Source: Chiloscyllium plagiosum (Eukaryota). From it: DNA of 64,000 bases. Position 1 is the first letter of the stretch; every line of letters begins with the position of its first letter. The stretch spans positions 66,349,351 through 66,413,350 of the forward strand of contig NC_057718.1 in the NCBI RefSeq assembly GCF_004010195.1. The letters are read 5' to 3'. Shown here one piece after another: positions 571 through 64,000 of the stretch. The notes below the pieces were generated by a model. That model made no database searches. It was not told where the DNA came from and saw only the letters and a list, made by a program, of their open reading frames with translations. Made by a program: the position numbers and the translations under genes.

Positions 571-656
571 GATTTGTTTGTTTGTTTTGTTTTTGCTTCC
601 ACTGATTTAAGAAATTTGGGTAACTTGTGGTGGTGGGAGTTGGGTAAGTAAGAAGT

Positions 657-4333: not shown

Positions 4334-4630
4334 GGGCAGCACAGTGGCACAGTGGTTAGCACTGCTGCCTCACAGCGCCAGAGATCCGAGTTCAATTCCC
4401 ACCTGACTGTGTGGAGTTTGCACGTTCTCCCCGTGTCTGCGTGGGTTTCCTCCGGGTGCTCCGGTTTCCTCCCACAGTCCAAAGATGTGCAGGTCAGCTG
4501 AATTGGCCATGCTAAATTGCCCGTAATGTTAGGTGAAGGGGTAAGTGTAGGGGTATGGGTGGGTTGCCCCTTGGTGGGTTGGTGTGGACTTGTTGGGCCA
4601 AAGGGCCTGTTTCCACACTGTAATGTAATC
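4334..4630 (+). mobile_element. HE1-type tRNA-derived V-SINE
   Basis: A box tggcacagtggtt, B box gagttcaattccc, V-core tgtgtggagtttgcacgttctccccgtgtctgcgtggg, CR1-like tail; TSD-like taatcacggt (4324) / taatcactgt (4631). Confidence 0.93.
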
Positions 4631-25640: not shown

Positions 25641-26186
25641 TACAGATATAAAAACTGATTCACAGCCTGTAGTAGCAATTGGAAATTGCATGGTAACAAA
25701 TTTATTCAGACTCACGATACCTGATGGATGTGTTTGTTATTTACAGTAATTAAGATTACTGATAAATGCCCTGGCATTCCAGCTTAAATTGCATCTTGTA
25801 ATTGTACAAATGTGAAGTAACAAAGGAGACTTGACTGTCTATAAATATTTGAACTGTGGAATGTCGATTTTTAAAGAATATCTCTTACTGTCTTACACTA
25901 AGTCAAGTCTGGTGCTACTATGTCAAAACCATTTAGAGATTCTTTTATCTATGGGACTTCCAGAAATGTAATCCCATTGAAACTGACTTTCCCAGGTGTT
26001 TATTCTAAGATATTTAAGACTTGTTTTCCTGCATTAATTGATAATTCTGTTTACAACTGCATGCTGGAACTGACTTCAAAATTGGATACATTTTAATACT
26101 ATTTCTGCAAAGTAACAAAAATAATTAGTTACTGTTCATTTTTTGAGATAACTGTTTGCTATTTTCTTCCTTATCCTCAGTGCAAG

Positions 26187-27389
26187 ATGGGTAACTCAGA
26201 CAGCCAGTACAATCTGCAAGGAACTAAAGGTAACATTGAGGGGAAGTCGATGCCTGTTGGCAGGCAGAAGTCATGTGCTCTGAAAATTCGAAGTGTTCAC
26301 GCCAATGAAGAAAAATCACGCTCTTCTTTTGGCTGGGGCTATAGTGGCAGCAACATAGGTTACAAAGCAAGATCTCTGGGCAAAAATTGCCTTTCTCAGC
26401 ACAAAAGCAACCAACGATACACTTTCAATCGTTCTTCATGTCAAAATGAGTCAATGATGGGTAGTAGCAAAGCATATACCAGGTGCCATCAGGGTCACAT
26501 GGGGAAATATCATGGGAATGATAAATTATCTGCAAACAATTTTGGCTGCTTTTATCTTAACAAAACAGACAATCATACTAAAGCTCCAGAGTACAATGAC
26601 TTTGTCTTAAATGGACACAGGATAGCTGAAAATATAACTCCATTCAAGAAACCAGAAGGAGAAAGCAGTCCAAAGGTTCTTATCAAAACTCTGGGAAAAT
26701 TTGATGGGGACATAAGGGTTGAGTTTCATAGTGGCAATGGTGATGCTGGCAGCAAAGCACCCTGTGATGAATCCCATGGGCCAGTTCAACTTTTGAGATA
26801 TTCTCTTGCAATGGAATCAAGTAAACAAAATAATGTACAAATTGATGGTAGTAAAGGAAACCTCATGGACCAGAGTTCTTTGCTTGGTGAGGAGCGATTA
26901 AAATCAAGCAAAGGCAGCTCGATCAGCTCTGAGTATTCTTGGCCAGAGTTGCCTTGGGGACACAATGCATACACCAGCGATTATGATAAAATGCACATAA
27001 TTGAGAAAGCTACTGAGGCAAGTAATCTTGAAAGCATTTTACCAAATAATGACCATCTCTTCCAAAGATCATCTCTCTCTTCTTTGCAAATGCTATACAA
27101 TGATGCTGCTGTAGGACTTTCCATACCCTCAGGGAATGAATTTTCAGATGGCTACAGAAACATGGCTTTTAATCCTCACAATTTGTTTGAGAGTACATTT
27201 TCCAACTGCATGAGTGCTCTATCTGATGAAGAGGGTAGAGGAAACACACAATATACCTATTATACACTTCCGTGTCGCAAGCCCAAGCACCTGTCTGAGG
27301 ATGGCTCTTCAAGAGTTGCTCTAAAAGGTCGAATGCGGCGTTTAAGTGCTTGGACTGGCAGCCTTACAAGAAAGAAGAGGAAACTACAG
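26187..27389 (+). CDS. TIAM2: TIAM2 first coding exon (401 codons; exon starts at 26181, 6 nt before the ATG); N-terminal myristoylation-type motif MGNSDS
   Basis: MGNSDSQY...SPKVLIKTLGK...RVEFH...TLPCRKPK...RKKRKLQ resembles vertebrate TIAM2 (TIAM1 starts MGNAES). Acceptor ttcttccttatcctcag ends at 26180. Donor CAG|GCAAGT at 27390 gives phase 0, matching the next exon. Confidence 0.95.
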
Positions 27390-27929
27390 GCAAGTAATCT
27401 TTTGGTTTGGTGGAGTTTGAGAATTACCACACTGTTCTAATTTAAAATGGTATATACACTAAATGCTATCAGAAGAGGAATACTTTGATGCTAGAACTGT
27501 TAACAGATTGTCAAATGTGAGTTTTAAAATTTAACCTTCAGTCTTCAGAACAGGTTCCATGCTAGTTTACGTTTTTGCGCTCCTGTGCTGCAGAGCTAAA
27601 ATCTGCTGCTGTTATGGTAACAAAGCCTTTCAAATATTAGCATCAATTTTATTGCCAGAATTACTAAAATAAAGACCATTATGTAATTCTGATCACCTTG
27701 TCACTTCATGTTTTTTTTCTGATTTGCTTCTTGATCCATGTCCTATCTCTATCTTTGTTTAAATTTTATTCTCTATTATATTTGAATATATAATTTAAAA
27801 AAAAATGTTTCAAAGTTGTATTCCATTTGCTTACTGGTTTCCACCCCCCCCCCCCCCCATTTTTTTGGGAAGCAATGAAATGCTTTTACTAGCTGCAAAG
27901 ACTTTTAGGAGTGAATGTGATAGCTAAAA

Positions 27930-28260
27930 TATATCATGGGAGGAAGCCCATCAAGTCTGTGCTAGTCACCCAACACCTGTCTACTACTCACTTCCCAGTA
28001 CCTGACCCATAACCTTGTATGCTATGGTATTTCAGCTTCTCTTCCCCCAAGGAAAAGAGCCCTCGTCTCTCTCTTTATAGCTGAATCGTTCCAGTTTAGG
28101 CAACATCCTTATGAATTTCTTTTATACACTCTCCAATACAATCACATCCTTTCAATAGTGTAGAGACCAGAACTACACCACTGTTCCAGTTGTTGTCTAA
28201 CCAATGTCCTTTACCATTCCATCTTAACCTCCCAGCTATTGTATTCTATGCCCCTTTATG
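27930..28260 (-). mobile_element. old CR1 3' fragment
   Basis: caatcacatcctttcaatagtgtagagaccagaactacac is the reverse of the VQFWSPHY.KDVI motif. Confidence 0.65.
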
Positions 28261-29456
28261 TTAATAAATAAATATAAAAATACATCTATCTATGTTCTGT
28301 ACCTTGTCATGGTCATTATTTGATACAGAAAAGATGCTGCTGAATGCATCTTCCCTCCCTGAAAAGGTACTGTCTGGATGTCTACATTTCTCTGTGTTGT
28401 GCTAAAGTTGTAATTGACTAAAGCAAAAATATCTATTTCTGGAAAATAATGTTATCATGCCCATGGGAACTAAAAACAACTAATGCAAATAAACTGGTGG
28501 ACAAGATTTTACTTTTTAAAGATTTTATTGTAACAGTCTAAAGTTAACTTGTCAAACATGAGTTGATTTACCAACATATGCATTATAAATGTAATACAAC
28601 TGAAAGATATCTTCTGAAAACCTTTTATTGTGTGCTGAGTTTCTGGCAGATTTTGTAACATTGAATAACTAGGCCTATAGACACTCCTGGCTCACCAGCA
28701 GAATTTCCTTCTCCCCATCATTCAATGTCAAAACTTCTAGTATTCTTTTACCAGTTGTTCCAATCCATTTGAGTTTTCTAGATGTGCTTAGAACCAGCAA
28801 GATGAACATCTGACATTCCATTCCTTAAATCTCTTTCCAAAAAATCAATTTTTATTCCCTTTCTTTTGAACAGAAACCAAAATCTTACCAGCATCTTGTT
28901 TAACTATTTACACAAGAGCAGCTGACCTTGTTTCTCGATGGCAATGGCACCTTTGTGTCAGTGTCTCAAGCAACAGCTGCCTCTTTGCTGTGATGTACTG
29001 AGGGAAAATGTTGATGGATTTCAGTCAAGTTTCTTTTCTCATGGCAACTGAAGCTTGTGGGTATTTCTCCAAGCCAAAGTATTTATCCAGAGTTCTTTGG
29101 TTTACTTTGGGTTGAAGGTTTATTTCAAAACATAATTGTTTTGTAAAGTTAGTCAGGATAAGGTTTATTATTACAAATGTTAACTGAGTTGATGATTAAA
29201 CTTGTGGACTGGATAGTTGAATATTTTTTTGCTCCTGATAAGCGGACTTGTATGACCTAACATTATCATTTTGGGAGTCAATGGTGGGGTGAATAAAAAA
29301 CTACCCAGTATATGTTCTAGGGCCATTCACTTCTACACTCGTTAGCTAAATATTACACCAGCCTTGCAAGTTAAACAGATAAACATACATTTGACTGTGT
29401 TTCAATCAGTATCAACTGTGTATTATTCACACACCTTATGCTTGATAACATTTTTA

Positions 29457-30047
29457 CAGAGTCATTTGAGATATACAACATGGAAACGGACCCTTCAGTC
29501 TGACTTGCCCATGTCGACCAGATAGTCTAAATTAATCCAGTTCCATTTGCCAGCACTTGGTCATTATCCGTCTAAACCATTCCTGTTCATATACTCATGC
29601 AAATGCCCTTTAAATGTTGTAGTAGTACTAACTTCCACCACTTCCCTGGCAGCTCATTCCATACACTCACCACCATCTGTGTGAAACAGTTGCCCCTTAG
29701 GTCCCTTTTAAATCTTTCCCCCCATCCTAATCTTTGCCCTCTAGTTCTGGGCTTCCTCACCTCTAGGAAAAAGACCGTGTCTATTTATCCTATCCATGCC
29801 CCTCATAAATTTATATCCCGTCAGCCTCTGACGTTCCAGGAAAAAACAGCTCCAGCTATTCAGCCTCTCCCTTAGCTCAAGCCCTCCAACCCTGGCCATG
29901 TCCTTGTAAATCTTTTCTGAACCATTCAAGTTTCACAACATCCTTCCTTGGGGGGAAGACCAGAATTACAAACAACATTCCAAAAGTGGCCAAACCATTG
30001 TCACAACATGATCTCCAAACTCTTATACTCAATGCTCTGACGAATAA
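29457..30047 (-). mobile_element. HER1-like CR1 3' end
   Basis: colinear with 2095-2678 and 11953-12606. Confidence 0.88.
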
Positions 30048-31773
30048 AATGTAGAACTTCTGACCAAAATTTTAATTTTTGTTAATTATTTTTGTTGTTT
30101 GTTCAGCTGCTGCAGTTATCTATAAATAAGTCTAAAGTCAAAATGCCAAAAATTAAATTCCTTAGAAGCTGAGACTGTGTGTATGTTCATTAGGAGCTCT
30201 AGTGAAAACATCGTGACATTTGGGAAAAGAACTGCATACACCTTTGCTGAGTTTCCTGTTCATTTTTAACAATGATCCCAATCACTTGCAATAACACATC
30301 TGAACATACAAATTAGGAGCAGAAGGACATTTTTGGCCCTTCAAGTCTGCTCTGCTATTCGGCAAGATCATGGTTGATTTGATTACTCCACATTCTCAGC
30401 TGCTCCTATAACCTTTCACACTCTTGCTTCTCAATATCATATCTACCCTTGCTTTAAAAATATTCAAAGATTGTGCCCAGAATTATATTTTGTTGAATAA
30501 GAAACTTGCTGTAATAATTGGTATTATGGTCAAACCTGAAAATTGAGTTGTGTTTTTAAGCCCTTATATTTTTAGACTTGAAATATTTGAGATTTTTATC
30601 CAAAGAATTTTAAGTTTAAGCAAGCTACAGCAGTTAAAAACCAATTTAACTTCCAGATCAAATATTGACATTAGAAACTTCACAAAAAGTGTTTTAGTGG
30701 ATAAATATTCCATGGCATGGCATTATAAGCAGTTCCTGTAAGAGTCTTGTGGGAACATATAAATTGTGAAGAAGGTCTTGTGCTCCGATTGTTTTCTTTC
30801 TGACCTTTTTGATATGCTGAGGGAGGAATTGATCTTCCTTATGTCTATTTTTGGATAAATGACCAGTTCTGATCAATTTCCCCCCTGCCCCCACCATACT
30901 TTGGACATCGTTGATTTCCAAATATCTAGGCCACTGGCCTGACATAGATGTTGAAAAATTTATGAACATCCAGGTTTCAGCTCAAAATTATCATCAAATG
31001 GAAGAATTGATTTTTATTTGCTCCCTCTTGAGATGTGAGTATAGTTGATAGGCCAGTTTTTATTGTCCATTCCCAATTGTCCTTGACAAGGCTGTGGTGG
31101 CTACCCTTCTCGGGTACCCGAAGTAGTTATTTTTTTGCATGTTGTGGTAAAAATTCTGCAGAGTTCTCCCTGTTTTTAGTGGGTTACTACTGGCTGAGGC
31201 CTGTCCCTGCTGCATTCCCCTCTACCTTTGGTTGCAGCTGGGTGTTCCAGAATTCAGAATCTGAATTCTCTGAAAAACATTTGTAGAAAATGCAGCATGT
31301 TATTAAACTGCACCCACTTAAGCAAACAAGGGAAGAAAGGAATTGACATTCCACTGTTAGCTTGGGTGGACCGATTTAGTTTTCTTATCTTTGAGACAGA
31401 AGATGAGATCTCCCCTGTTTCAATGGGTAATGAAAGGGCTTGCTGAGCTGGGGATGATGGGACAAAGCCTGTGGTTGGACGTTTGTCAAACAGTTACAGG
31501 CAGAAGATCATTTTCTGACAGATAAATTTACAGATCCGTGAAAGATTCTGTTAGCTGCATTATTGAGCTATTGAATATGTGCATTATAATCAGTGCTGAT
31601 TAAACTCTTCCATTGACTTTGTTTTAAAAGTCCTTCATAAGACCATCTGATTTTTCATCTATTAAAATGTTGGGCTACTACTTTAATGAGCCTAATTTTA
31701 CCTTTTACTGACAGTTCATAATTTAAGAATATTTAGCATTTATTCCCCCTTATTCACGAACATGTCATAGAAA

Positions 31774-31896
31774 GTTAAAAATCACACAACACCAGATTAT
31801 AGTCCAACAGGTTTATTTGGAAGCACAAGCTTTTTGAGCGCTGCTTCTTCATCAAGTGATTATGTTCCCAGTCCAAAACGGGCATCTCCAAATCAA
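31774..31896. mobile_element. 123-bp Penelope family 2 mini-insertion (inverted terminal segment plus forward tail) with a 10-bp TSD
   Basis: gtcatagaaa at 31764-31773 and 31897-31906; the insert matches 36643-36771, partly inverted. Confidence 0.85.
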
Positions 31897-32059
31897 GTCA
31901 TAGAAAATACCTTTTAATTATTCTTTCCATGGATTCCAAATGGGCATGCCTCTGGAAATAGCCATTGTCAATAAATGTGGTGCTTGAGTTTTATTGAGTA
32001 TTATAATTAATCATTATACTATATTATGAATAGCCTTTTCCCTAGAAATTAGAATCTCA

Positions 32060-32650
32060 AAAATGAACAGCATGCAAGGACACAATTCTGCTTAGAAGGA
32101 GCCATCCAGCTTAATCCTACTTTCCAGCTCTCAGTCCATAATAGATGTCATAGTCTCATAGGTTACATCACTTCAAATGCACACAAAAGTTCTTTTAAAA
32201 AGTTTTTAAAATGCTGCTACTGCCCCATCCAGCAAGTTTGAGATCATCAATCCCTCAACGCTCTAACCCTAAGTCTGTACCCCTTGGTCATGGATCCTTG
32301 AACTAAGTGGAGTAACGCTTTCCTATTATTCTAATTAAACAACATGTAATTTTATGGATTTCAATTAGCTGGCCCTTCTGTCTCCTCTGTTTGCATACAA
32401 ACAGGTTTTGCCTATCTAATCTTACCTCATAGCTAAAATTCTCCAGTCAACATGCTCAACGAATTCTTCTCTAATACAGTTGCTTCTTTCTAATTGTGTG
32501 GTAATCCGAACTTCATGCAGTATTCCAATTGTGGCTTTAGTTCCAGCACAGTCTCACAACTATAATATTAGCATAATTGAGAGAAAATAGGCAGGTATCT
32601 CATATATCATGTTAACCATCTATCTGCTGAACCACCTTCAGGATTCTGTG
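32060..32650 (-). mobile_element. old CR1 3' fragment
   Basis: gtggtaatccgaacttcatgcagtattccaattgtgg is the reverse of the PQLEYC..F motif. Confidence 0.6.
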
Positions 32651-32656
32651 GAATCG

Positions 32657-35600
32657 TAGAACATAGAACATAACAGTGCAGTACAGGCCCTTTGGCCCTC
32701 GATGTTGCGCCGTCCTGTGAAACTAATCCAAAGCCCATCTAACTTGCACTATTCCATTCTTGTCCATATGCCTATCCAGTGACCATGTAAATGCCCGTAA
32801 GGTTGGTGAATCTACAACTGTTGCAGTCAAGGTGTTCCACACCCCTACTACTCTGAGTAAAGAAACTACCTCTGCCATCTGTCCTATATCCATCACCCTT
32901 CAACTTAAAGCTATGCCCCCGTGTGCTAGCCGTTGCCATCCTAGAGAAAAGGCTCTCACCGTCCACCCAATCTAACCTTCTGACCATCTTATATGTCGCA
33001 ATCAAGTCACGTTTAACCATCTTCTCTCTAAAGAAAACAGCCTCAAGTCCCTCAACCTTACCTCGTAAGATCTTCCCTCCGTACCAGGTAACATCCTAGT
33101 AAATCTCCCCAAACCCTTTCCAACGCTTCCACATCCTTCCTATAATGTGATTACCAGAACTTCACACAATACTCCAAATGTGACCTCACTAGAATTTTGT
33201 ACAGCTGCAGCATGATCTCATGGTTCTGAAACTCTATCCCTCTACTAGTAAAAGCTAACACATGGTATGCCGTTTAACAACCCCATCAACCTGGGTGGCA
33301 ACTTTGATTTCTCTGCTTATCTGCACTAACAAGAATCTTACCATTAACCCAGTACTCTGCATTCCTGTTGCTCCTTCCAAAGTGAATCACCTCACACTTT
33401 CCTGCATTAAACTCCATTTGCCACCCCTCAACCTAGCTCTGCAGCTTATCTATGTCCCACTGTAACCTCCAACATCCTTCAATACTATTCACAACTGTAC
33501 CAACCTTCGTATTGTCTGCAGATTTACTAGCGCATCCTTCTACACCCTCATCCAGGTCGTTTATAAAAATGACAAACAGCAGTGGACCCAAAACAGATCC
33601 TTGCGGTCTGTTTTTCAGCTCGCCAATTTCTGACCTAAGCTGCTAAATTGCCCACTATTCCATGCTTCCATATTTTGTGCAGTAGCCCACCATGGGAAAC
33701 CTTGTCAAGCACCTTACTAAAATTTTTATACACAACATAATGTCTTTATCCTCATCCACCTGTTTGGTCACCATGTCAAAGAACTCAATAACACTTGAGA
33801 GGCATGACCTACCCTTCACAAAACTAGGCTGACCATCCCTAATCATCTTTTTCCTATCGAGAGGATTATAAATTCTATCTCTCATAACCTTTTCCAACGC
33901 TTTACCCACAACCCAAGTAAAGCTCACTGGTCTATAATTACCAGGGTTGTCTTGAACCTGGGAACAGCGTTAGTCTTCTGGCACTATTCCTGTAGACAGT
34001 GACGACATGCCAAAGGCTCAGAAACCTCCTCCCTGGTTTCGGCCCAGGGTATTTATCTATTTTCACACTTTCCAGAATTTCTATCACCACCTCCTTGTGA
34101 ACCTCAATCTCATCTAGTCTAGTAGCCTGTTTCACAGTATTCTCCTCGACAACATTGTCAGTATTCACACTGGAAAAAGACATTTAAATTCATTTCGCAC
34201 TTCCCCCAAGTCATTCCTTTTACTATTGCCTCAGATTTTTGCAATACCTTGGGCGAAGTACTATGACATACTGTTCTATATTAGAGATGGAAGATAAATT
34301 TAAAATGATGCTTCTGTTCTGCCACCGCTCCCCCCCCCCCCCCCAACCCCCACCACCACCCCCAACACCGCCACCACCCCCAACACCGCCACCACCTCTT
34401 CTATCGTTTTCACTGTTCTTAATGAAACATCTAAATCCCGGAACCTGCAACAACCATTCCTGTCTGTGCTCTACTGATATCTCTGAAATGGCTGCAACAT
34501 CAAAATCCCAAGTATTGACCCATGTTGCAAGTTCTCCCACCTTATTCCAGATGCTCCTGGCATTTCAAACCAACCTTTACTTTGCCAGTCCCCTCTTGCA
34601 ACATTGAAACCTTATTTTGGACATCCCTACTCTCAACCTCCTCTGTACTGTAACTACAATTTAGGTTCCCATCCCCTGGCTGAATTAATGTAAACCTACC
34701 CGAAGAGCATCAGCAAACTCCTTCGCCCCCCCCCACCCTCACCCCAAGGATATTGGTACCCCTCTGATTCAGGTGTAGACCATTCTGTTTGTAGAGGTCC
34801 CACCTACCCCAGAAAGAGCCCCAATTATCCAGGAATCCAATACCTCCCTCCTGCACCATCCCTGTAGCCACGTACTCAACTCCTCTCTCTACCTATTCCT
34901 CACCTCGCTAGCACGTGGCATAGGCAACACACCAGAGAAAACAACTCTATTTGTCCTAGCTCTAAACTTTCACCCCAGCTTCCTGAATTTCTGCCTTAAA
35001 TTCCCATCTCTTCTTCCTACCTATATTGTTGGTGTCTATGTGGGCCAGGACTGGGGGCTGCTCCCCCTTCTCCACAAAGATCCCAAAAACACGATCAGAG
35101 ACATCATGAACCTTGGCACCTGGGAGGCAACACACCAACCGTGAGTCTGACTCATTCCCACAGAACCTCCTGTCTGTCCCCCTAACTATGGAGTCCTCAA
35201 TGACCTCCCCCTTCCTTTCTGAGCAACAGGGACAGACTCTGCCAGAGACCTGTACCCCATTGCTTACCCCTGGTAAATCATCCCCCACAACAGAATCCAA
35301 ATCAGCATGCCCATTGAGGAGAATGGCCACAAGGGATCCCTGCATTGCCTGCTGGGTTCCTTTTCCGTCCCCAACACTAACCCATCTACATTCTTCTTGT
35401 ACCTGAGGTGTGACTACCTTCCTGTAACTCCTCTCAATAACCCCCTCTGCCTCCTGAATGATCCAGTGTTCATCCAGCTCCAGTTCCCAAATGCAGTTTT
35501 TGAGGAATTGGGTGCACTTCCCACAGATGCAGTCAGCAGGGACGCTAATGGTGACCCTTACCTCCCACATTCTGCAGGAGGAACATTCAATTGCCCTAAC

Positions 35601-35858: not shown

Positions 35859-36771
35859 CAACAGAGGAAAGTGGCTGAGCAGAGGCTGATAGCTAAGTTC
35901 GGTACCCATAGGGAGGGCCTCAACCGGGACCTTGGGTTCAAGTCACATTACAGGTGATCACCATTGCACTACACACACACACACACACACAGATATTCCT
36001 ACACACACACACTCTCACATGCACACGGACACAGATACACACATACGCGCACACAGACACCCACACACACCCTTATAGACACACACATTCCCACACATGC
36101 ACCCCCTCACAGACTTAAGACACTCTGCACTCACTATATATACACACACTCACACTTTCTCACACTCACAACCCCCACCTCAGACAGACACACACAGAGA
36201 CAGACAAAGACCCACATGCACGCATATATATTGTGTGTGGTGAATTTTTCTGGTACTTTCAGAGTTACATTGCACTTTACTCAAAAACCACATAGATTCA
36301 TGTCGAACTCTGAGCTCAAAAACTGCATGAATTTATGTAAAACTCTGTTATTTCACTTTTTAGATTGGAATCAATCTAAACATCAGGTCATAGACAGAGA
36401 ACACAGGGGGCTAACACCTTCAACATATTGTCTAGCTATCGCCATTGTCAATAGCTAACCCGAGAATGCAACTTTTTAAAAAAAAAATGGGTTTTGTGAT
36501 TTACACATGAAAGAAGTGAAACTATCACTGTATTCTAACAGATGGAAGGCTTAACAGACAATCAATTCTTCAATGTATAATTTCAGTTACATCACACTGC
36601 AAATTTTTGCTATAAATTCTGTGTTGCGATCGAGCCCTCCACAATCACCTGATGATGGAGCATCGCTCCGAAAGCTAGTGTGCTTCCAATTAAACCTGTT
36701 GGACTATAACCTGGTGTTGTGTGATTTTTAACTTTGTACACGCCAGTCCAACACCGGCATCTCCGAATCAT
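35859..36771 (+). mobile_element. Penelope-like element (family 2), 3' portion: end of GIY-YIG ORF, CA-rich 3'UTR, hammerhead-bearing terminus
   Basis: 35859-35957 translates QQRKVAEQRLIAKFGTHREGLNRDLGFKSHYR* (PLE C-terminal GLN motif); (CA)n-rich 35970-36225; terminus matches 31774-31896. Confidence 0.85.
36646..36680 (+). ncRNA. minimal type I hammerhead ribozyme motif (intact core)
   Basis: CAC-CTGATGA-T-GGAGC-atc-GCTCC-GAAA-GC-TA^-GTG: stem I CAC/GTG, 5-bp stem II, palindromic AGCT in place of stem III, CUA triplet. Confidence 0.8.
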
Positions 36772-37384: not shown

Positions 37385-37702
37385 TCCAGTTTCCTCATTT
37401 CTCCTCCCTCCACCTTGTATCAGTCCCAACCCTCGAACTTGGCACTACCTTCCTAACCTGCAATCTTCTTCCTGACCTCTCCACCCCCACCCCCACTCCG
37501 GCCTATCACCCTCACCTTAACCTCCTACCACCTATCGCATTTCCAACGCCCCTCCCCCAAGTCCCTCCTCCGTACCTTTTATCTTAGCCTGCTTGGCACA
37601 CTCTCCTCATTCCTGAAGAAGGGCTCATACCCGAAATGTCGATTCTCCTGCTCCTTGGATGCTGCCTGACCTGCTGCGCTTTTCCAGCAACACATTTTCA
37701 GC
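37385..37702 (+). mobile_element. Penelope family 1 3' end with a hammerhead motif at 37609-37644
   Basis: attc-CTGAAGA-A-GGG-ctcata-CCC-GAAA-TG-TC-gatt, then gatgctgcctgacctgctgcgcttttccagcaacac. Confidence 0.85.
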
Positions 37703-38250: not shown

Positions 38251-38261
38251 CTCTCAGGAGG

Positions 38262-38720
38262 AGTTGAGAGTGTATTGCTGGAAAAACCAGCAGGTCAGGC
38301 AACATCTGAGGAGCAGGAGAATAGACGTTTCAGGTATAAGCCCTTCATCAGTAATGAGGCATGTGGGTCGGGGCTGAGAGATAAATGGGAGGGAGATGGC
38401 GAAGGTAGCTGGGAATGTGATAGGTGAGGGAGAAGATGATAGGTCAGAGGAGGGAGTGATGGACAGGTCCGGAGGGCAGTGCCAAGTTGAAGGCACTGGG
38501 ATAATTTTTGGGGAGGGGAAATGAGGAAGCTGTTGAAATCCATGTTTATCCCGTGTGGTTACAGGGTCCCAAGGCTGAATGAGGCGTTCCTCCTCCAGGC
38601 GTTGAGTAGTAACCGTTTGGTGGTAGAGGAGGCCCAGTACTTGCATGTCCTTGGTGGAGTGGGAGGGGGAGTTCAAATGTTCAGTCCGGGGTGGTGGGGT
38701 TAGTGGTGTAGGTGAATGCA
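38262..38720 (-). mobile_element. Penelope family 1 3' end (antisense) with a hammerhead motif at about 38319-38355
   Basis: ORF 38254..38754 HSTKDMQVLGLLYHQTVTTQRLEEERLI; minus strand atta-CTGATGA-A-GGGC-ttat-ACCT-GAAA-CG-TC-tatt. Confidence 0.85.
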
Positions 38721-43765: not shown

Positions 43766-45229
43766 GTTTTTCCTTACTATTTACTTATTTAATAATGTGG
43801 CTCACCCAAAATGCAAAGGTACCTATAAAGGAGAGAAGAACTACTGCTAATATACTGCTAGATTTAAAATGTTTTATTTAAAAACTTAAAAACAACCTGT
43901 GAATCCTTAATGTAAAATTTATCATAATGTCCTTCATGAATGAATGACTTCATGGGTTGATTGATCAGAAATTAAGGAATCTAATAACATTATTTAGGGA
44001 ATCTGCAAACAAAATCTAGGGAGGCTAAATATTCCTCTCTCTGGATATAGTATCTTAATCCCTCCAAATATTTTGAAATCTTTTCAGAATTTAGATATGT
44101 ACAGTCGCAAATGTGTTGTAAAATAGAAGACTGAATGTGTTTGCAATAATATGACATAATTATGGTTGTAATGAAAGTTAAAAAATAAGAAAGATTCATG
44201 CAAGAGTATTAATCTGTAAACCATATCAAAGAGTAAGTTGGCCTTAAACTGAAACACTTTGACAGCATGTTCTTCATGAATTCCAGTTCTTAAAGTCATA
44301 ACATAAAAGTCATGTTATTTCCTTGTGGAGTTCGTAACTTGAGATGTTTCTTCATTTGATATTTGGTCTGCCACATCAAATGCCAGTGAACGTCAACTTA
44401 TAAGCTAGAATTTTACAGCCCACTGGTGGAAGAATGCCATGTTGGGGAAATGGAGGCTGTACAATTTGGTGCTATACTGACAGTGCCCTGGTGCCAAGAC
44501 ACTACCAATGTAGTGGCCTGTGGGTGAATTGCTTATTAGCTACTTAAGAGCATCCTTCTTCACCACTATTAATTTTAGCAACAATAGACGAGTATGACAC
44601 TGTCCAGCATGTTAAGTGAAACCTGGTGAACTAGTGGCTGGGCAATGCCTATTTCTCAAGTTCTCTATTTCCATCACAAGTGTCTCCCCTCTTTCCCCCA
44701 ACCTCCAAGGAAAGCGCTCTCTCTCTTCTCATGTACCCACACCCTTATTTTTCCCTTCCTCTCCAACCTTGTCCACCCTGACATCCTCGACCTGGTGAAA
44801 CCCTGAGCAATGCTTTTTCTAGGCTTCTTTGCTGGAAGCCTTCATTGGGGACTATAACAGTCCCAACAATAACCACCAATCCTAGTGGTACTGCTGGCTT
44901 TCTAATTGGCCACCAGCTTGCTGTGGGTGGATGTCAATATCTAGGACTCTAAGTGGAAAAACATTCCTTATAAACTTCAGCATAAATATCTAGCATTGAA
45001 TATTTTAAGTTGTATTTTGTTCATATTTCTATTTTGCCATCTATTTGGCTTTATGCTTCTATCATCAATTCAATTCTTAGTCATAGTTGACCAATTATGT
45101 CTGTTCTCATTAATCAAAGTGATGAAAGTACAGTCGAGCAGCACTTACTCAGCAATAACCTACTTATTGACGATTGGTTTGAGGTCTGTCATGCATTTCG
45201 TGACTTCATTACAACCTTTTTTTTTTCAA

Positions 45230-45587
45230 ATGTGGACCAAAGAGCTGCACTCGGAAATGAGATTCACTGCCCTTGGTATCCAGGCATAGTTTAACTGAGT
45301 GTGGTATCAAGAAGCTTTAGCAAAACTGGAGTCACTGGTAATCAGGGAAAACTCGCCACTAGTTGGAGTTGTAGCTACTCAAAGAATAATACTTGCAATT
45401 GTTGGAGGTTCATAATCTAAGACATCAATGCCTGAGTTTCACAGGGAGTTTTAAAGTCTCAACCATCAGTGGCTTCATCACTGACCTTCTCTTCTTCAAA
45501 AGGTAGCAGTGAATCAGTTTGTTGATTGCACAATATTAAGCACTATTCAGATATTGAAGCAGTCAATGTTCATATGTAACAAAACCT
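45230..45587 (+). mobile_element. LINE family B RT fragment
   Basis: FTALGIQA*FN*VWYQEALAKLESL ... VSQG..; same family as 52520-53690. Confidence 0.65.
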
Positions 45588-46172
45588 GTGCTATTATCGC
45601 AGGACTGTTAATCTTCAGGACCCAAGTGGGGACGCGGGTTCAAATCTCACCACACCATTTATAAAAATCTGGAATTAAGAGCCCAATGCTGATAGCTGTA
45701 AAAGCCCATGTGACTCACTAATGTCCTTTTAGGGAAGGAAACTGCCATCCTTATCCAGTCTGGCTACCATGAGCTTCCAGACCTAAAGCATGGTGGCACA
45801 ATGGTTAGCACTGCTGCCTCTCGGTGCCAGAGACCAGGGTTCAATTCCTGCCTCAGGCAACTTTCTGTGTGGAGTTTGCACATTGTCTGTGTGGGTTTCA
45901 TCCCACAGTCCAAAGATGTGCAGGTTAGGTGAATTGGCCATACTAAATTACCCATAGTGTTAGGTGAAGAGGTGAATGTAGGGGAATGGGTCTGGGTGGG
46001 TTACTCTTCGGAGGGTCGTGTGGACTTGTTGGGCCGAAGGGCCTGTTTCCACACTGTAAGTAATCTTAAAAAAAAACAATGTGGTTGCCTCTTAAGTGTT
46101 CTGTGGACAATTAGGGATAGGTAATAAATGATGGCCTAGTCAGTGACGCCTTCATCCTGTGAATGAATTAAA
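45588..46172 (+). mobile_element. tRNA-derived SINE family B, split by an HE1 insertion
   Basis: B box gggttcaaatctc (about 45636), actaatgtccttttagggaaggaaactgccatcc, resumes at 46078 and ends gtgaatgaattaa. Confidence 0.75.
45788..46077 (+). mobile_element. HE1-type V-SINE nested in SINE-B
   Basis: tggtggcacaatggttagcactgctgcc head; tail ccacactgtaagtaatct + A run. Confidence 0.93.
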
Positions 46173-46218
46173 AGTAAGTTTAACGAATTAAGGTCTAATT
46201 ATTCTGTCTGATTTCTAG

Positions 46219-46443
46219 GCTACAAGCCAGACTGACCTCGAAAACTGGGTTACAGCAATACATTCTGCCTGTGCATCAGTGTTTGCAAAGCAACATGGGA
46301 AAGAAGATACAATCAAGTTACTAAAAAATGAAACCAAAAACTTCATGCAGAAGATCGATATGGATGGAAAAATGAAGAAAATGGCTGAGTTACAGCTGTC
46401 TATTGTAAATGATCCCAAAAACAGAAAAGCTATTGAAAATCAG
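46219..46443 (+). CDS. TIAM2: TIAM2 coding exon 4 (225 nt; PH C-terminal helix and coiled coil)
   Basis: tttctag|GCTACA ... AATCAG|gtattc; encodes ATSQTDLENWVTAIHSACAS...KIDMDGKMKKMAELQLSIVNDPKNRKAIENQ. Confidence 0.96.
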
Positions 46444-47598
46444 GTATTCTTAGATCTTATTGTTGACATCATCCTTTTGAAGGACTTCAAGTTGCAAATT
46501 TATTTATTTTGGGGAGTGCATGCTCGTGTGGGAGCACAAGATGCAAACTTTTATAATCAGCTAGTTCTTTGTTTCAACAGCTAATGGATGTGTACCAGCA
46601 TTAGTGTTGTAATGCTGCACTTGTGCTTGATTGTGTAAAATGCTCTGAGCAGCTTCCAAATGTGTTTAATGCTAGGAATCTTCAGACTGAATATTTGTTT
46701 CAGAATTTTTGTAGCTTCTAAATCTGTTGATGTTAATCCCTCACCTCGGTGCATAGTCTTTGGATTTTCAATAGATAGCCAAATGTCGAAGAGTTAAAGA
46801 TAACTTACTGTCATCTTTTTGAGAAAGAAGGCAGGCTTGTCCGACAGGGAAACAACCTGTACTAGGGGAAGGCGAAATAGGGTCCATAGCCAGAGTAGGA
46901 TTTGAACCCATGCTATTGGCAGTGGTCTGGCGTTATAAAGTGATGGTAGATATTTCAATTTGTTTTCATCATGTGGCTGATCATGAGTCTCTCTGCCTCT
47001 TAACACCTGCCAATGGCATCTGTTGGAAGGATATACAAATTGATACTCAAACTTCTCCTGGAGTAGGACTTGAAACCGGAGTTTCTGTCTTAGAGATAGG
47101 ATTGCTAACTGTGGCATCAAAAGAACTCTCTAACTTAGTGTCAGGGAAATTACCCTCTTTGAATAGACCACACAAGCATGGATTGTGTGAAATTGACAAG
47201 CTGTTTATTACAAGCCATATGGCTGGAAGAGAAATTGACTAGGCTGACACTGTACAGGTAGACCAAGGGTTCTCTTCCTTGAGCAGTGGGCACAGGCAAT
47301 TTGAAAGGGGCACAGTAATGTGGTGTGAATTACAGAACAATCAAGAGTAAAACACTATGGGAGGACAATCAGCCGCCTGGTAGCAGCACTCAGTCCGTGT
47401 TTGATCAGGAGAATCTAATCCTTTGTGAGAGTAGGTGCTAATATCTCTCATCCTGGCATCAATGGGTTTCCATTGTGGTTAGTCCACAAGTGAGGTACCT
47501 TGGTGCCTTTCAATCTGAGCACCCTTTATGGAGTTTCAGTATGGAGCAAGGCTGCCCTTAGGGCTTGGGGAGCGATTGTGCTTATTGAAGGCTAGGAA

Positions 47599-48481
47599 GT
47601 GGACAGTGATAAAGGTTACCTCTGATTACAAGGGGATCTTGACCAGTTGGGCCAATGGGCTGAGAAGTGGCAGATGGAGTTTAATTTAGATAAATGCAAG
47701 GTGTTTCATTTTGGCAAAGCAAATCTTAGCGGGACTTATACACTTGATGGTAAGGTCCTAGGAAGTGTTGCTGAACAAAGACCTTGGAGTGCAGGTTCAT
47801 AGCTTCTTGAAAGTGGAGTCGCAGGTAGATAGATTAGTGAAGAAGGCATTTCATATGCTTGCCTTTATTGGAGCGAGTACTGAGTACAGGAGTTGGGAGG
47901 TCATGTTGCAGCTGTACAGGACATTGTTTAGGCCACTGTTGGAATATTGCATGCAATTCTGGTCTCTTTCCTATCAGAAAGATGTGAAACTTGAAAAGGT
48001 TCAGAAAAGAGTTACAAGGATGTTGCCAGGGTTGGAGGATTGAGCTAGAGGGAGAAGTTGAATAGGCTGGGGCAGTTTTCCCTGGAGCGTTGGAGGCTGA
48101 GGCGTGACTTCATCGAGGTTTATAAAATCATGAGGGGCATGGGTAGGGTGAATAGATAAGATCTTTTCCCCGGGATCGGGGAGTCCAGAACTAGAGGGCA
48201 TAGGTTTAGGGTGAGAGGGGAAAGATATAAAAGAGACCTAAAGGGCAACTTTTACACACAGAGGGTGGTACGTGTATGGAATGAGCTGCCAGAGGAAGTG
48301 GTGGAGGCTAGTACAATTGCAACATTTAAAAGGCATCTGGATGAGTATATGAATAGGAAGTGTTTGGAGGGATATGGGCTGGGAGCCAGCAGGTGGAACT
48401 AGATTGGGTTGGGATATCTGGTCGGCATGGACGGGTTGGACCAAAGGGTCTGTTTCCGTGCTGTACTTCTCTATGACTCTA
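47599..48481 (+). mobile_element. young CR1 (HER1-like), last 0.9 kb
   Basis: LQGDLDQLGQWAEKWQMEFNLDKCKVFHFG; ORFs 47765..48043 and 48211..48402; tail ctatgactcta. Confidence 0.94.
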
Positions 48482-48704
48482 AATCTATTGTCAGGCTGTC
48501 TAGGGAAGTGTATTCCCCAATCTGGAAGTTGCCTCATCACTTACTGTTTGCTTTCTCGTATCTTAGTTAGTCTGTTTGGTCAAGGCTGAGGCACTCTGAG
48601 TAGTTGCTGTTGTGGCTTAGGCAGACATGGTTCCTTATGCTCTTTGTGGCCATGCTGTGGGTGGACAGGGTAGTGGATTTTCTCCCACACTTTGCGTCTA
48701 ATAT

Positions 48705-49035
48705 ACAGAATACTGAATTACCTCGACAGAGTAGATGTTGGGAAGTTGTTTCCATGGGTGGGAGAAACTAGGACCTGAAGGCATAGCCTCAGAGTAAAAG
48801 GAAGACCTTTTAGAACAGAGATAAGGAGAAATGCCTTCAGCCAGAGAGTGATGCCACAGAAGGCTGTGGAGGCCAGGTCATTGAGGTAGATAGGTTCTTG
48901 AGTATCAAGGGGATCAAGGGCTATGGGTGAAAGCTGGAGAATGGGGTTGTGAAACCTATCAGCCATGATTTATTGGCAGAGCAGACTCAATGGGCTGAAT
49001 GGCTTAATTTCTGCTCCTCTGCCTTACAGTCTGAA
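48705..49035 (+). mobile_element. CR1 3' fragment
   Basis: HSLRVKGRPFRTEIRRNAFSQRV; similar to 37970-38250. Confidence 0.8.
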
Positions 49036-50187
49036 TTGTATATGTCTTTTTTTTTGTGAACCACTGTACAGTAGATGGGTTCAGACAAATAATGTGAAGA
49101 AACATCCTTGTTCACACATGATACCATCTCTGGGTCACTCGGTAATGAATGGAAAAAACAGTTAGCTCCAAAGTGAATGCTTTGAACGTTTAACTCTTGA
49201 TTGTTGTTTTTATGAGGAATATATTACTTTAGTTGATTTCATAATTCATAGTGTCAGATGTAAAGGAACAAATCAAAAGTAAAATGCCACATCTGTGTGT
49301 TGAAGCAAAACCACGTGTAGCTTTCACTGTGGCCCTGAGTCTGAACTTCAGTAATGTATGCTCAGTTCTTGATGACTGCCCTGTTATCTTACACTGCAAC
49401 AAGGAGAATGATATGTTTAATGTGATAGCGTAAAGTGAATAGGGGAAATTGCTGTTTCATGATACTCTTGTATTCAAACAGTTCTCTGGCTTAATTTTTC
49501 TTAAATGTTGAAGTAGGTAGTTGGCAGCCCTGTTGGGCACCAAATAAGTCTGCTGTTATTGAAAGATAAATATCTTTCATGCCAGCCCATGAAAATATTA
49601 AGGTCCACAGAGAAATTGATGTAGCGAGACTAGCCCGAGTATCTCAATCTACAGGATTTCCCCATTAACGTCAAGTATACAATTTGTGCCAGTAGGATAC
49701 AATTTGCAGCTAGTTTTATAGCTTATTGTCAGAAAAGTAATGATAGAAAACAAACTAAATAATTTTTTGGGTGCAATTGTTTACCAAGTTCTGTAACTGT
49801 TTGCTGCATAAATTTGTAATGGCTGTTGTGAAACTGCAAATGTTTTGATGCTTTGTAGTGTAGCGATGTTCACATTGAAATCTTTTTTAGCAATAACCCT
49901 AACAATGGGGCTTCTGTTTAATGAATTTGAGATCCAGATCTTTTCCTCTTTTGATTGCATTTATTTTGCTCATATAATTGGTTTCTGTCATGTCATGGAG
50001 TATTAGATGAGTTAAATAAAGTAAGAACCACAATGATTGATTGATTTTTTTTTTTTCTTTCTGTACAGTGCAAATTATTTGAAGAATAACTGAAATTGGG
50101 ACGAAAAGAAAGCAGAACTCAGGCCCTGCATTTTTGCCCAAGTATAATGCTATAATCACTAGTGTCCTATCATGTTAATGTTAAAAG

Positions 50188-50698
50188 TTACCAGTCTGAT
50201 TGCTCAAATAGCAGGACTGACATATGAAGAGAGACTGGATTAGTTAGGACTATATTCACAGGAGTTTAGCAGAATTGGGGGTTTGGGGGGGGGGGGGGGG
50301 GTGGGGAGGCGGGAGGAATCTCATAGCAGTCTCTCAAATTCTAAAAGGAGGAGTCAGGGTAAATGCAGAAACTATGTTCCTAATGCCTGAGCAGCCTATA
50401 ACCAGACTTTACAGTCTAAGGATAGAGGGTTAGGCCGTTTAAAACCAAAATGAGGAGAAAGCCCTTCACCCACAGAGTGGTGGACTGTGGAATTCTCTGC
50501 CACAGAAAGCAGCTAAGGCCAAAACATTGCTTTCAAAAAAGAGTAAGAAATAGTTATTAGGAATAAAGGGATCAAAGGGAACGGGAGAAAGCAGGAACCT
50601 AGTGCTGAGTTGGATGAAAGACCATGATCATATTGCATTGACAGAGTAGGCTCAAAGAGCCGAATAGTCTACTGCTTTTGTTTTTTATATTTCTATGT
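50188..50698 (+). mobile_element. CR1 3' fragment with an internal G-run expansion (about 50277-50315)
   Basis: GLTYEERLD*LGLYSQEF; FTHRVVDCGI; 3'UTR. Confidence 0.8.
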
Positions 50699-52519
50699 AA
50701 AAGAGGGCCAACTGTTGAGTAGACCTTTTTTAATTAACTGATTTTGAGATGTTATGACATGCTTAAGTAAATTGAGTAACCCAAATTATTTCAAATTTAG
50801 AAAGTTGTTTTAAATTGGTTTACACAGGAACTAAGGCAGGTAAATAGAGTTAAGATACAAATAAACCATGGTGGAGTAGACTTGAGAGACTAAATACCCA
50901 CTCCTCTACCTTTTGGTGTTCCTATTGCATGTGTGCAAGGCATTGTGAGACTATTCTCCTTTCATTCATGCAAAATTCTAAAGTGATGCTGATTTGGTTT
51001 CAGTTGTATTACTAGTAAGTATACAAATGTGCCTCAATAGCAGATAATATTTGGTACATTTGCATTAATTAAAAGAAAGATAGTCATTGCTTGCATGTTT
51101 CCAGTAGTTGTAAAGACACTTTGACATTTTAATATGTCTGGTACGGAGTAATAAATAGGCAAAACATAATCACTGTTTTTACAGTGGAATGAGTGGTGTA
51201 TTATTTCTACTCCATTGAATAGCCATTTTTTCCATATAGCTTGTTTGCCCTGGATATAGACATAATATCCTGCACTACACTGAATGATGCCTTTATGTGT
51301 CCTGCTAGAACATAGTGTTACATGATGACATTCTTGTTTCCTGGCACGGGTGGGGAAAAACCTCTCCTGAGCGCTGTCGGCTTTTCCTTTAGTTGTTAAC
51401 TGTAAATCTGTAAAACTACTAAATTTCAACATAAATTGAACCGAAGCTTGCTAATAGAGACTGTAGGCTGGAATTCCCCTGAGAACAGCTGGTTCTATTT
51501 TAACGTTTGAAATTGGTACCAGATAGTCTACAGACTTAACAGCATTTCACAGTCCTCCCAAATAATACTTTTGATGTTTCTTACTCTGAGTAATTCTTCA
51601 GTCTTAGGCTACATTAAAATTGTGGGGGGTGGGGAGGAAGTGGGGATGGAACTGTGGTACTAATTGTTAATATGTTTTCTGCATGATGTCCAAATTAGTT
51701 TAAAAGTAGGAGTCTGAAATCTGAACAGTAGTTTAAAAAGAATAACTTGAGGTATTATCATTGAGACTGAAATTTTATTTGGAAATCTGCCTCATCCCCA
51801 TAAATGTTTGAATATATAAAAAACACTGTGCAATTAGGTATTGTATGTATAAACACAACCCTTGAGGTTATTTTAATACTCTTTATATCTTGGCCGCTGC
51901 ATAAAAAGGCACTTTGTGTGGCCATTTGATTTTTCTAGAATTCCAAAATCAAGTGTTTGAAACAAGTGGTCTATATTAGACAGGCTAACATTTTTAAAAA
52001 TTAAACAATGTTTAAAATGCAATAGGTAAAGTTTTTATTTCAAACTTTACAACTGCGTCACATTTTGCTTACCCTTCAAATGGCTTTTTACAGATTGCAT
52101 AAGAACACTGCATGAAATAAGATAAAGCTCATCAACAGCATTCATTCCTTTTGGCATCTTGTGAGATTGTGGTCAACTTTAGCATCTGAATAGATCAAAG
52201 TATATCCGTAAATGAGAAAATATTTTAATTCTGTAAAGGGCGACAAATTTTCTTTTTCTGACTACAAACTAGAATTGAAATTGGACATTGCTATTTTGCT
52301 GAAATACCAGGAGGGTTTTGCAAATTTAAAAAATCAAATGGGATTGTGGTGGACATTTTTAGCTTTACAAGATAGTTTTGCTTTTGAAGCAGTGAAGTTA
52401 ATATATTATTGAGACCGAACAGCATCTTTGTGTCTTTGGTTAAGGAAACCTGCCTAATGACAGCCATGGATTTATAACATTTAAAAGACTAGTCCAGTTC
52501 AGTTTCTGCTCAATGGTAG

Positions 52520-61767: not shown

Positions 61768-61914
61768 AATTGTTCCAGAGATGAAGCAACACTTCGAAAA
61801 AGAACGTTGTCCCTGTCTCAACGATTAAGAAGTAAAAAGGGTTTGTTCTCTTCACTGAAGGGGTTAGACGATCTTGGAAGGAAAGGAAAAGAAAAGAGAC
61901 CCCCAATTATACAG
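61768..61914 (+). CDS. TIAM2: TIAM2 coding exon 6 (147 nt); gene continues beyond the window
   Basis: tttttcttttgaag|AATTGT ... ATACAG|gcatgt; encodes NCSRDEATLRKRTLSLSQRLRSKKGLFSSLKGLDDLGRKGKEKRPPIIQ. Confidence 0.9.
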
Positions 61915-62747
61915 GCATGTTTTCATTTTTCAACTCAAAGTAAGATTCAAAAGTTTTCTTAACTGAATGTCCTCAAAGTCCCTGAATTATTCATTGTGTT
62001 TTCCTTCAGCATATAAATATAGTGTTCCATATGGAAGAGAATACCTTAACACAAAGAAAGAGACTATTGGATGTTTAGTATGGGTGAGGGAAAGTATTTA
62101 TTTAAACAGATTAAGTGCAGTTGAATTTCCGTCATTCAGCTTATTGTTTACTATTGCCATTTTTGTAGGAATAGGATCTTGTGTTGCTATTTTGGCTCTT
62201 TGTGATGTAGGATGAAGTTTTCTAATCTCCAATTCTTTGAAGAACTTCTAGAAACCTGTAATATTATGTAATGGACAAAATTGCCCATCAACAACTAATA
62301 CACATGTACTCTTCATGCCAAAAGAACCAAATACCAAATTTATCTTGTAGATGAGATGTATTGAATTTCCTATAACGAAACATTTACTAACAGGGATATT
62401 GATATTAAAGTATGTGTTATAATTACAGGAATATGTCATGATGCAAATTAATCTTGCAGAAGTTAGTAGATAGCCAGTACATCTGGTCAATTCCTTGACT
62501 ATTACAACTTATTTGTTGAGCTGTGTATTGAATTTCAAGTCACTTACAACATTTTAGGTGGACTCCTATAGCCTGAACAACATGAACTATGATGAGAAAT
62601 CTGGGAGAATCACGTGAGAAATCCAGTGTTGGCATTCTAAATGTTGGGAACAACTGGCTGCATTTTTCACTCATTTTTCTGGGCATCAAGACAAGTTTCT
62701 CAATTGGGAATAGCAAGGTTCTAATAAATAGGGATTATTGCTTGTTG

Positions 62748-62970
62748 AGGAGAAAGTGAGGTCTGCAGATGCTGGAGATCAGAGATGGAAATGTGTTGCT
62801 GGAAAAGCGCAGCAGGTCAGGCAGCATCTAGGGAACAGGAGAATCGACATTTCGGGCATTAGCCCTTCTTCAGGAACATTCCTGAAGAAGGGCTAATGCC
62901 CGAAACGTCGATTCTCCGGTTCCCTAGATGCTGCCTGACCTGCTGCGCTTTTCCAGCAACACATTTCCAT
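62748..62970. mobile_element. palindromic non-coding Penelope family 1 mini-element with a 14-bp TSD
   Basis: arms 62785-62876 and 62879-62970 (92 bp, 2 mismatches, 2-nt loop); attattgcttgttg at 62734-62747 and 62969-62982. Confidence 0.92.
62878..62913 (+). ncRNA. minimal type I hammerhead ribozyme motif (intact core, GUC site); mirror copy on the minus strand at about 62842-62877
   Basis: attc-CTGAAGA-A-GGGC-taat-GCCC-GAAA-CG-TC^-gatt; palindromic ACGT in place of stem III. Confidence 0.8.
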
Positions 62971-64000
62971 TATTGCTTGTTGTTGACCTCATTAACTATC
63001 ACCTTATATGCAGCCTCCTATTTAACTCTCACCACAAAGAAAATAAACATTGACAGATTCTCGACAAGAAAGTCAGAGCAGGAATCTGATAACTCCAGCT
63101 TGTCACTTGCTCCTTCACTCTATCTTGGACACCTTGTACCAGCATCTCCACGAATACTCGATGGGCTGTGGTTGCACGTGTTCCCCATCCACGAGCACTG
63201 GCATCTGACATCTGCCAACCTCTTGGAAGTCTCATGGTGTCTCTCTGATCCACTTCCTGGACACACCAACTTCTAAAAGCTGCTGTATGGAGGACACTGG
63301 CAAAGAACATTGCAATGCAGTGACATGTATCCACCTCTCTGTGGACAGGCTGCACACTCGCTGTCTTGATGCTCAATGTCTTTGCATCAGCCTACATGCT
63401 GTCAGCATCATTGCCATGCCTTGCGTCTTAGCATAGTCTCAAAGCCAGGCAGTTTGTCTTGCTGGTCAATAGGACAGATATAATGCACATCACTGTGCTA
63501 CATCAATCTGTCATCCTCCTCGTGTGCCAGCAGCTTGCTTGGTAAACAGATTGCATGTACTGCAAGTGTCAGTCCATGAGTTCCAGCACAGTAAGTCAAG
63601 AACGTTCTCTCCAATTAGTACAGGAATTAGCTGTTGTCAGGTGTCCAGTTGGAGTGTTCTTAGTGTGCGTCTGGAGTTTGGGCTGGGAGACATGGTCAGT
63701 TCATTTGGCTGCATAACAGACCTGGGGAGTAACACTAAAAGAGCTGGGGAGATTCTCTGTCTGGGGCTGTCTGGTTAGGTCACCTAAGGTGGTGGGCCAC
63801 TGCCAATCTGTTGAATCATCCAGCAAAAGCCAGGGGGAATGATGGAACAAAGGAGGCCACTGCTGTGGAAAAGAGATGAGGAACCCAGTACATAAAATCA
63901 CGTTCTATTATTTGGAACTATCTTCAGGAAGTCCCAAGTGAATGATACGTTTCTGCCTCTTCCTGTGGTATCCTGCATCATGAATGCTAATCTTCAGTCA

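Follow-up and report, generated by a model that had tools for sequence, protein, structure and literature searches.

A hairpin-shaped insertion of two mirror-image Penelope-like element ends, with a hammerhead motif on each strand, in a TIAM2 intron of Chiloscyllium plagiosum

An intron of TIAM2 in Chiloscyllium plagiosum holds a hairpin-shaped insertion of 221 bases with hammerhead ribozyme motifs on both strands, and the question it raises is whether such a unit is the minimal product of retrotransposition by a Penelope-like element (PLE) or a ribozyme-only family that propagates itself. Here we report that the insertion consists of two mirror-image PLE end fragments; it lies near the end of the window, by which we mean the whole 64,000-nucleotide stretch of DNA analysed, and its features are collected in Table 1. 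The two arms (62785-62876 and 62879-62970) are 92 nt each and are mismatched at two pairs (62837/62918 and 62849/62906), with the letters CA at the centre between them and a 37-nt tail on one end only. The insertion site is AT-rich, and the direct repeat that encloses the unit is exact over 14 bp, begins ATT and stops matching at both sides. Its 14-mer occurs exactly twice in the window, and a pair so placed, with 10 nt of slack allowed on each side, would be expected by chance with a probability of about 7e-6. The predicted hairpin has a folding energy of -194.4 kcal/mol (z = -25.1), and none of 200 shuffled sequences folded as well.

The arms, mismatches, tail and direct repeat are thus all present as an earlier note on this DNA had described them. 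That note gave the size as 223 bp with a 14-bp repeat, figures that are each possible singly and not together, since positions 62969-62970 are common to the right arm and the right repeat and were counted twice; the unit measures 221 bp if the duplication is 14 bp, or 223 bp if it is 12 bp and there are 2 nt of microhomology. The insertion contains no ORF and no internal PLE sequence. Within one arm an ATG opens 26 codons that run through the end of the tail (62750-62827, minus strand), as would be expected if the tail were the start of a PLE ORF.

Table 1. Positions of the parts of the TIAM2 insertion, its hammerhead motifs, the upstream exon and the sibling loci in the window.
Feature	Position	Strand	Basis
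Left target-site duplication, 14 bp	62734-62747	+	Exact repeat, chance estimate
37-nt PLE tail; outer end is the family's common tailed end	62748-62784	-	Contig and read ends; copy A has this tail too
Tail-bearing pLTR fragment, element sense minus; begins 3 nt upstream of the hammerhead core	62785-62876	-	94% identity to copy B over 87 nt
Inverted tail-less pLTR fragment including the CA centre; begins 5 nt upstream of the core; 62969-62970 also assignable to it	62877-62968	+	
Right target-site duplication, 14 bp	62969-62982	+	
Minimal hammerhead motif (core; one extra A; stem II of 4 bp; GAAA; ACGU), predicted to be cut after 62909	62882-62909	+	Motif scan
Minimal hammerhead motif with AUGU replacing ACGU	62846-62873	-	Motif scan
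A of initiator-like motif, at offset -4 relative to the core; a candidate for the RNA 5' end	62878	+	
Upstream coding exon of TIAM2; element lies in the next intron	61768-61914	+	Open frame between AG and GC donor
Sibling locus A: pLTR with tail, then a decayed GIY-YIG body of about 750 bp and an inverted tail-less arm that begins just upstream of the core	3024-4050	-	
Sibling locus B: lone tail-less pLTR that keeps its upstream sequence and lacks an inverted arm; approximate left edge	37387-37702	+	
Sibling locus C: pLTR with upstream sequence and endonuclease end; edges approximate	38254-38714	-	

The identity of the arms comes from their siblings. A BLAST search of the element against the window returned four further arm-like pieces at three loci: two at locus A (3024-3146 and 3961-4049), one at B (37608-37700) and one at C (38271-38356). 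Core identity to the TIAM2 copy reaches 92-94% in B, against 81-82% in the pieces at A and C. A 101-residue read-through of copy A, with X at four stops, had 421 protein matches at E <= 0.001 (best 1e-16). Five of these were long (816-907 aa); three carried an RT with a GIY-YIG domain at the C terminus, one the RT only and one the GIY-YIG only, in a domain scan that took in 6 of the 150 listed proteins and in which most domain scores lay below the Pfam curated cut-offs. Searched back with tblastn, the long PLE proteins map to loci A and C, and no RT of the arm family was found in the window by this means. Pfam gave nothing useful on single-frame fragments, and the copy A read-through reached only E = 0.11 against GIY-YIG. 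By these sequence comparisons the arms belong to a PLE with RT and GIY-YIG, linked through A and C at 81-82% core identity, which upholds the Penelope origin of tail and arms proposed earlier. Given the decayed coding sequence at loci A and C and the matching PLE proteins, the element sense of the tailed arm is the minus strand, which leaves the right arm as the inverted copy without a tail. A C-x4-C-x2-C linker is present in all three matching proteins that were read, its middle cysteine being lost in the decayed copy A; a CX2-5CxxC linker upstream of GIY-YIG is described as a mark of Neptune and Nematis, not of Poseidon (PMC8557442).

Locus A is laid out like the TIAM2 insertion around a longer body. 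A single event is unproven there: the two arms of the locus are 81% alike, a convincing duplication pair was looked for at A, B and C and none was found, and about 57 bp of unexplained sequence (3904-3960) separates the truncated coding body from the inverted arm. Exact pattern scans of viral contigs, bacterial and archaeal genomes and metagenomes returned no matches.

Hammerhead cores, assigned with the usual position numbering, begin at 62882 on the plus strand and 62873 on the minus strand, just inside the arm starts, as had been noticed from the letters, and 8 nt lie between the abutting cores. Features of the minimal hammerhead (the core, an extra nucleotide at 9/10.1, G10.1-C11.1, GAAA and UH) are present on both strands, and the plus motif carries every sequence feature given for minimal hammerheads in the available text of PMC4209133. 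The motif scan confirmed the difference first noticed between the strands: the palindromic positions 15.2-16.2 are kept on the plus strand (ACGU) and can only wobble-pair on the minus strand (AUGU), with predicted helix III duplexes of -3.1 and +1.2 kcal/mol, respectively. On these predictions the minus motif is weakened rather than clearly dead, and its AUGU letter is found in about half of the family depth. Helix I would pair as C-G, U-A, U-U and A-U on the plus strand and as C-G, U-A, U-U and G-U on the minus strand, and is absent from the predicted minimum-energy folds; stem I of the plus motif, with three standard pairs and a U-U pair, is weak. Minimal hammerheads have a helix I of 4-5 bp.

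In a transcript of the whole element the cores are predicted to be paired with the opposite arm at P >= 0.95 (27 of 28 positions on the plus strand, 28 of 28 on the minus), so that self-cleavage of the TIAM2 copy, and ribozyme activity with it, is unlikely; the earlier proposal that plus-strand RNA would sequester its own ribozyme in the hairpin is borne out at the level of prediction. A single minimal motif is reported not to cleave, and dimers to cleave little (PMC4209133), and the hammerhead of a PLE from anole cleaves only with protein and is dispensable for insertion (PMC11167929). Rfam gave no hammerhead match among eight weak matches, none of them to a ribozyme, and the ribozyme assignment therefore rests on the published minimal motif. 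A microRNA reading was dropped, as the only matches were to generic Rfam hairpins under their gathering scores (mir-4662, 49 against 97 bits). A loose motif scan of the window gave seven matches, namely both arms, B, C, a copy of another family at 36649 and two that are likely due to chance. That second, unrelated repeat family has a minimal-hammerhead-like motif with a 5-bp stem II and other helix III letters, and its two copies (36640-36750, plus; 31768-31864, minus) are 88% alike.

The position of the cut site bears on how the arms were bounded. Both arms have their start 31-33 nt upstream of that predicted cut (62909/62910), which rules out the cut site as the arm boundary and indicates that the template RNA was uncut. 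A description of the unit as truncated right at the ribozyme is accurate for the 5' edge of the ribozyme and wrong for its cut site, which lies well inside the arms.

The ends and the centre of the unit can be seen in many copies at once in sequencing runs. Four runs were aligned at 88% likeness to a stretch holding the element and its flanks, three of DNA, of which one came from the related organism B, and one of RNA (X21). Each DNA run placed 44,778-51,653 contigs on this stretch, with a summed depth, which is not a copy number, of millions on the element against mostly 10-35 on unique flanks. Loose ends pile up before 62748, in 617-953 contigs of each DNA run and in 434 RNA reads, with AT-rich flanks; this marks the edge of the tail as a natural end of the family. 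A second, tail-less end piles up near 62966 and at the mirror position 62789. The loose letters before 62877 are those found upstream in copy B, and the CA at the centre is thus ordinary family sequence; it had been correctly spelled in the earlier note and called a loop, but it is the normal sequence upstream of the core and forms part of the right arm. Some contigs return from inside the left arm (62780-62827) to the tail-less end, suggesting partial tandem arrangements in other copies.

At least three other forms of head-to-head centre were found, with a 3-nt loss, a 2-nt loss and a 1-nt gain; they appear as indels at 62875-62876, so that the contigs must cross such a centre. They occur in all three DNA runs, that of organism B included, with 4-12 contigs each (contigs, not loci), and together make up 2.7%, 6.1% and 16.5% of the depth at 62876. 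Counting the TIAM2 copy this makes four forms, in which the arms end between offsets -1 and -6 from the core without filler. For every form the arm ends can be placed so that the asymmetry does not exceed 2 nt, and in one case the palindrome is perfect, a product that self-priming of a strand would hardly give. Of the 15 joints listed, ten fall at 62877-62881 and were not counted as evidence, as the reference arm begins there. Comparison of the junction among copies had been set beforehand as the test between the two origins first considered. Run on contigs, it yielded at least three other centres, which speaks against one self-copying palindrome and leaves room for several masters. A self-propagating ribozyme-only family is unsupported, the centres differing among copies in three of three DNA runs; the tail, the inverted pLTR and the duplication instead support the minimal product of PLE retrotransposition.

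The TIAM2 copy itself is no artefact of assembly: in a further sample of organism A, contigs lead from unique flank into the element at either end (X3, records 9 and 16), and the left junction is seen again in a second study (X5, record 18). In organism B, whose flank differs by 3.4% substitutions (38 of 1,116), a contig aligns from 63250 back to exactly 62969, leaving four letters unaligned at the edge of the element, and no joint spanning the element is among the 15 rows listed; those four letters suggest an empty site in this organism. A contig of organism B ceases to align at 62648 with 25 letters left over, and the left flank at 62564-62671 has a depth of 60-420 in all three DNA runs, pointing to another old repeat fragment. 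The arms of the TIAM2 copy are 98% identical to each other against 81-94% for the siblings. Four of its letters reach no more than 19-51% of the family's depth in organism A, and 2-6% in B, and a fifth (62860) shows the opposite trend (21-24% and 42%, respectively). Because the arms differ at only two of 92 positions and copy-specific letters are rarer in organism B, the copy is probably a young, dead-on-arrival insertion, as judged from sequence.

Based on these observations, we are confident that the unit is a PLE stub built at insertion. As to how it was built, we lean slightly towards twin priming combined with a boundary at the transcription start. In this model the enzyme would nick both strands of the AT-rich site about 14 nt apart; two cDNAs would be primed from uncut RNA on opposite target strands, one from the start site that gives the tail and the other from the tail-less one; each would be extended as far as the 5' end of the RNA, where transcription most likely starts, 4 nt upstream of the hammerhead core; and the two cDNA ends would be joined with 0-2 nt of play in a single integration event. 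The hammerheads would be passengers in the insertion. The protein of an anole PLE, which is predicted to form a dimer, cleaves both strands and extends them, with uncut RNA as its template and a preference for ATT; two internal RT start sites bound the tail of that element (PMC11167929). The fixed outer ends seen here at 62748 and at 62966/62789, with their AT-rich flanks, match those two start sites. Transcription is described as starting in the pLTR for two studied PLEs (PMC2377424, PMC8557442).

The start-site boundary is the weakest step of the model, as the initiator-like motif would turn up often by chance (1.3% per base), is lacking in copy A and has decayed in C. It is intact in copy B, where at offset -4 it fits both initiator consensus forms. 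A TTTAT lies 31 nt upstream of offset -4 in copy B (37578-37582, plus) and 30 nt upstream in C (about 38381-38385, minus); the sequence between TTTAT and initiator differs in the two copies, and the former may be a TATA-like element. In the literature searched, a scope that left most subscription journals and Repbase/Dfam outside, there was no report of twin priming in PLEs or of abutting hairpin stubs in cartilaginous fish.

The same stub could be reached by folding back: a strand would serve as its own primer, or the RT would switch to the cDNA it had made, and resolution by the endonuclease would fall at the edge of the tail. A hairpin needs a loop of at least 3 nt, for which centres with 0-2 nt of asymmetry, one of them a perfect palindrome, leave no room, and we regard this origin as unlikely. 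It directly explains the variants common to both arms, which are 98% alike; palindromes at inverted junctions of PLEs have been interpreted in print as self-priming (PMC3846280), and the tail has been ascribed to endonuclease resolution (PMC8557442). The tail-less end is also present in the single-arm copy B, however, so that fold-back is unnecessary, and the anole protein extends both strands (PMC11167929). Another account changes only what sets the boundary, with the RT working on longer uncut RNA and stalling just past stem I owing to the ribozyme fold or a bound protein. The arms do start where the 5' strand of stem I lies (offsets -1 to -4), the longer copies A, B and C show that RNAs extending upstream are copied too, and the anole hammerhead needs protein to cleave (PMC11167929). 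Yet an RT meets the fold from its 3' side and would be expected to stop before it, not after; stem I is weak; and the boundary carries an initiator-like motif with a conserved TTTAT upstream. We consider such a stall improbable.

A non-autonomous palindromic family, in which whole hairpins were transcribed and re-inserted in trans from several masters with different centres, would fit the abundance of each other centre (depths up to 26,000-34,000 against 15-20 on unique flanks in run X3), the finding that pLTRs suffice for mobilisation in trans (PMC3846280) and the description of non-autonomous PLE derivatives (10.64898/2026.07.22.740005, PMC8557442). But there are at least four centres, distinguished by 1-3 nt, and every one of them can be traced to the upstream sequence of the family itself; a stub has nothing upstream of offset -5, where the candidate promoter sits; in stub RNA the RT start region and the core are predicted to be locked in the 92-bp duplex; and an abutting hairpin occurs at only one of the four family loci in the window. 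We give this account about one chance in ten, a shade below the stall. Least credible by far is a DNA-transposon MITE or a fold-back artefact of assembly or library. The unit is short, non-coding, palindromic and flanked by a duplication, like the frog Harbinger repeats (PMC5625713), but it has a 37-nt tail on one side, a 14-bp duplication and no symmetric TIRs, its family is tied to RT and GIY-YIG, contigs run from the flanks into both ends, and its arms differ at two places.

If twin priming built these stubs, they might be viewed as the PLE counterpart of strong-stop DNA, made by a dimeric RT-endonuclease that primes on the two target strands from its two internal start sites, copies a short leader as far as the transcription start just upstream of the hammerhead and joins the two ends. 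We put this forward tentatively, at somewhat less than even confidence. If true, the inverted pLTR, long without an explanation, would be accounted for, and self-folding double-stranded RNA units would number in the hundreds to thousands in the genome (rough depth ratios 380-5,400), a natural library for testing the idea.

TIAM2, the host gene, runs on the plus strand; its exon at 46219-46443 matches solved Tiam2 at E 2e-38 and Tiam1 at E 6e-26. The exon preceding the element, which has no Pfam match, is the sixth coding exon countable in the window and ends 820 bp before it, in agreement with the 0.8 kb after exon 6 first given. This exon appears to end at a GC donor (CAG|GC, 61914-61916), and the host intron may be GC-AG. 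In the plus-strand pre-mRNA a duplex of about 90 bp with 46 adenosines is predicted, with 62849 as an A opposite C, a context favoured by ADAR. By structure prediction and by analogy, the hairpin would probably be an ADAR substrate in the TIAM2 pre-mRNA: self-folding frog repeats are heavy ADAR substrates, and a lizard Penelope is heavily edited (PMC5625713). RNA run X21, in which about 2 in 100 reads were sampled, gave 2,263 reads, all on the repeat (5 of 30 bins) and none on the exon or flanks; 97% continue into unlike sequence, and the listed results of the run include no pile-up of read ends. An A>G change at 62849 was rejected as editing, being present in the DNA runs (25-48% of depth), where it comes from other copies. 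There is no sign of a host function for the hairpin.

As a single locus, the insertion is an intronic retroelement scar of little weight. As a class, minimal copies with variable centres expose RNA 5' ends, priming geometry and arm haplotypes directly from the genome, and by analogy the stubs could supply much of the double-stranded RNA of the lineage. The mechanism behind PLE inverted ends is still called undefined (PMC8557442).

A tail, an inverted tail-less copy and a duplication together are the published pattern of PLE insertion, here at minimal size. In the accounts of EN+ PLE units at hand (PMC3846280, PMC8557442, PMC8969392) we find the same head-to-head inverted copy of an end, the same one-sided tail of 30-40 bp and a duplication round the whole unit; Pen2a, for one, has a 31-bp tail and a 9-bp duplication (PMC3846280). 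The TIAM2 insertion differs in having no ORF or internal sequence, in that both halves stop at most 5 nt from the core, in its 14-bp duplication and in a joint that recurs at high depth in two organisms. With PAc, the Poseidon element of Anolis carolinensis (PMC11167929), it shares two internal RT start sites bounding a tail, an AT-rich target with ATT, uncut RNA and, in its family, a hammerhead near the ORF start. The closest proteins of the TIAM2 family carry a C-x4-C-x2-C linker, a feature ascribed to Neptune and Nematis and not to Poseidon (PMC8557442), and the PAc account, in its available text, gives no explanation of an inverted arm or of short run-off products (PMC11167929).

Metazoan PLE minimal hammerheads (PMC4209133) have in common with the motifs described here the core, an extra nucleotide before stem II, a G-C first pair and a palindromic helix III, and dual motifs on opposite strands, 100-700 bp apart, were reported in Schistosoma in 2014 (PMC4209133). 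Those of the TIAM2 insertion differ in their abutting cores, 8 nt apart, a 4-bp stem II, a U-U pair in stem I and an inverted arrangement that is unable to form a tandem dimer within one RNA. Non-LTR retrozymes (10.64898/2026.07.22.740005) are likewise short, non-coding, hammerhead-bearing and PLE-derived, but are described as head-to-tail tandems, whereas the TIAM2 unit is a single head-to-head unit with one motif per strand. Twin priming in L1 (PMC2837659) also yields inverted, truncated insertions between duplications by priming on both target strands; L1 belongs to another class of retroelement, and in the TIAM2 insertion both arms copy the same segment.
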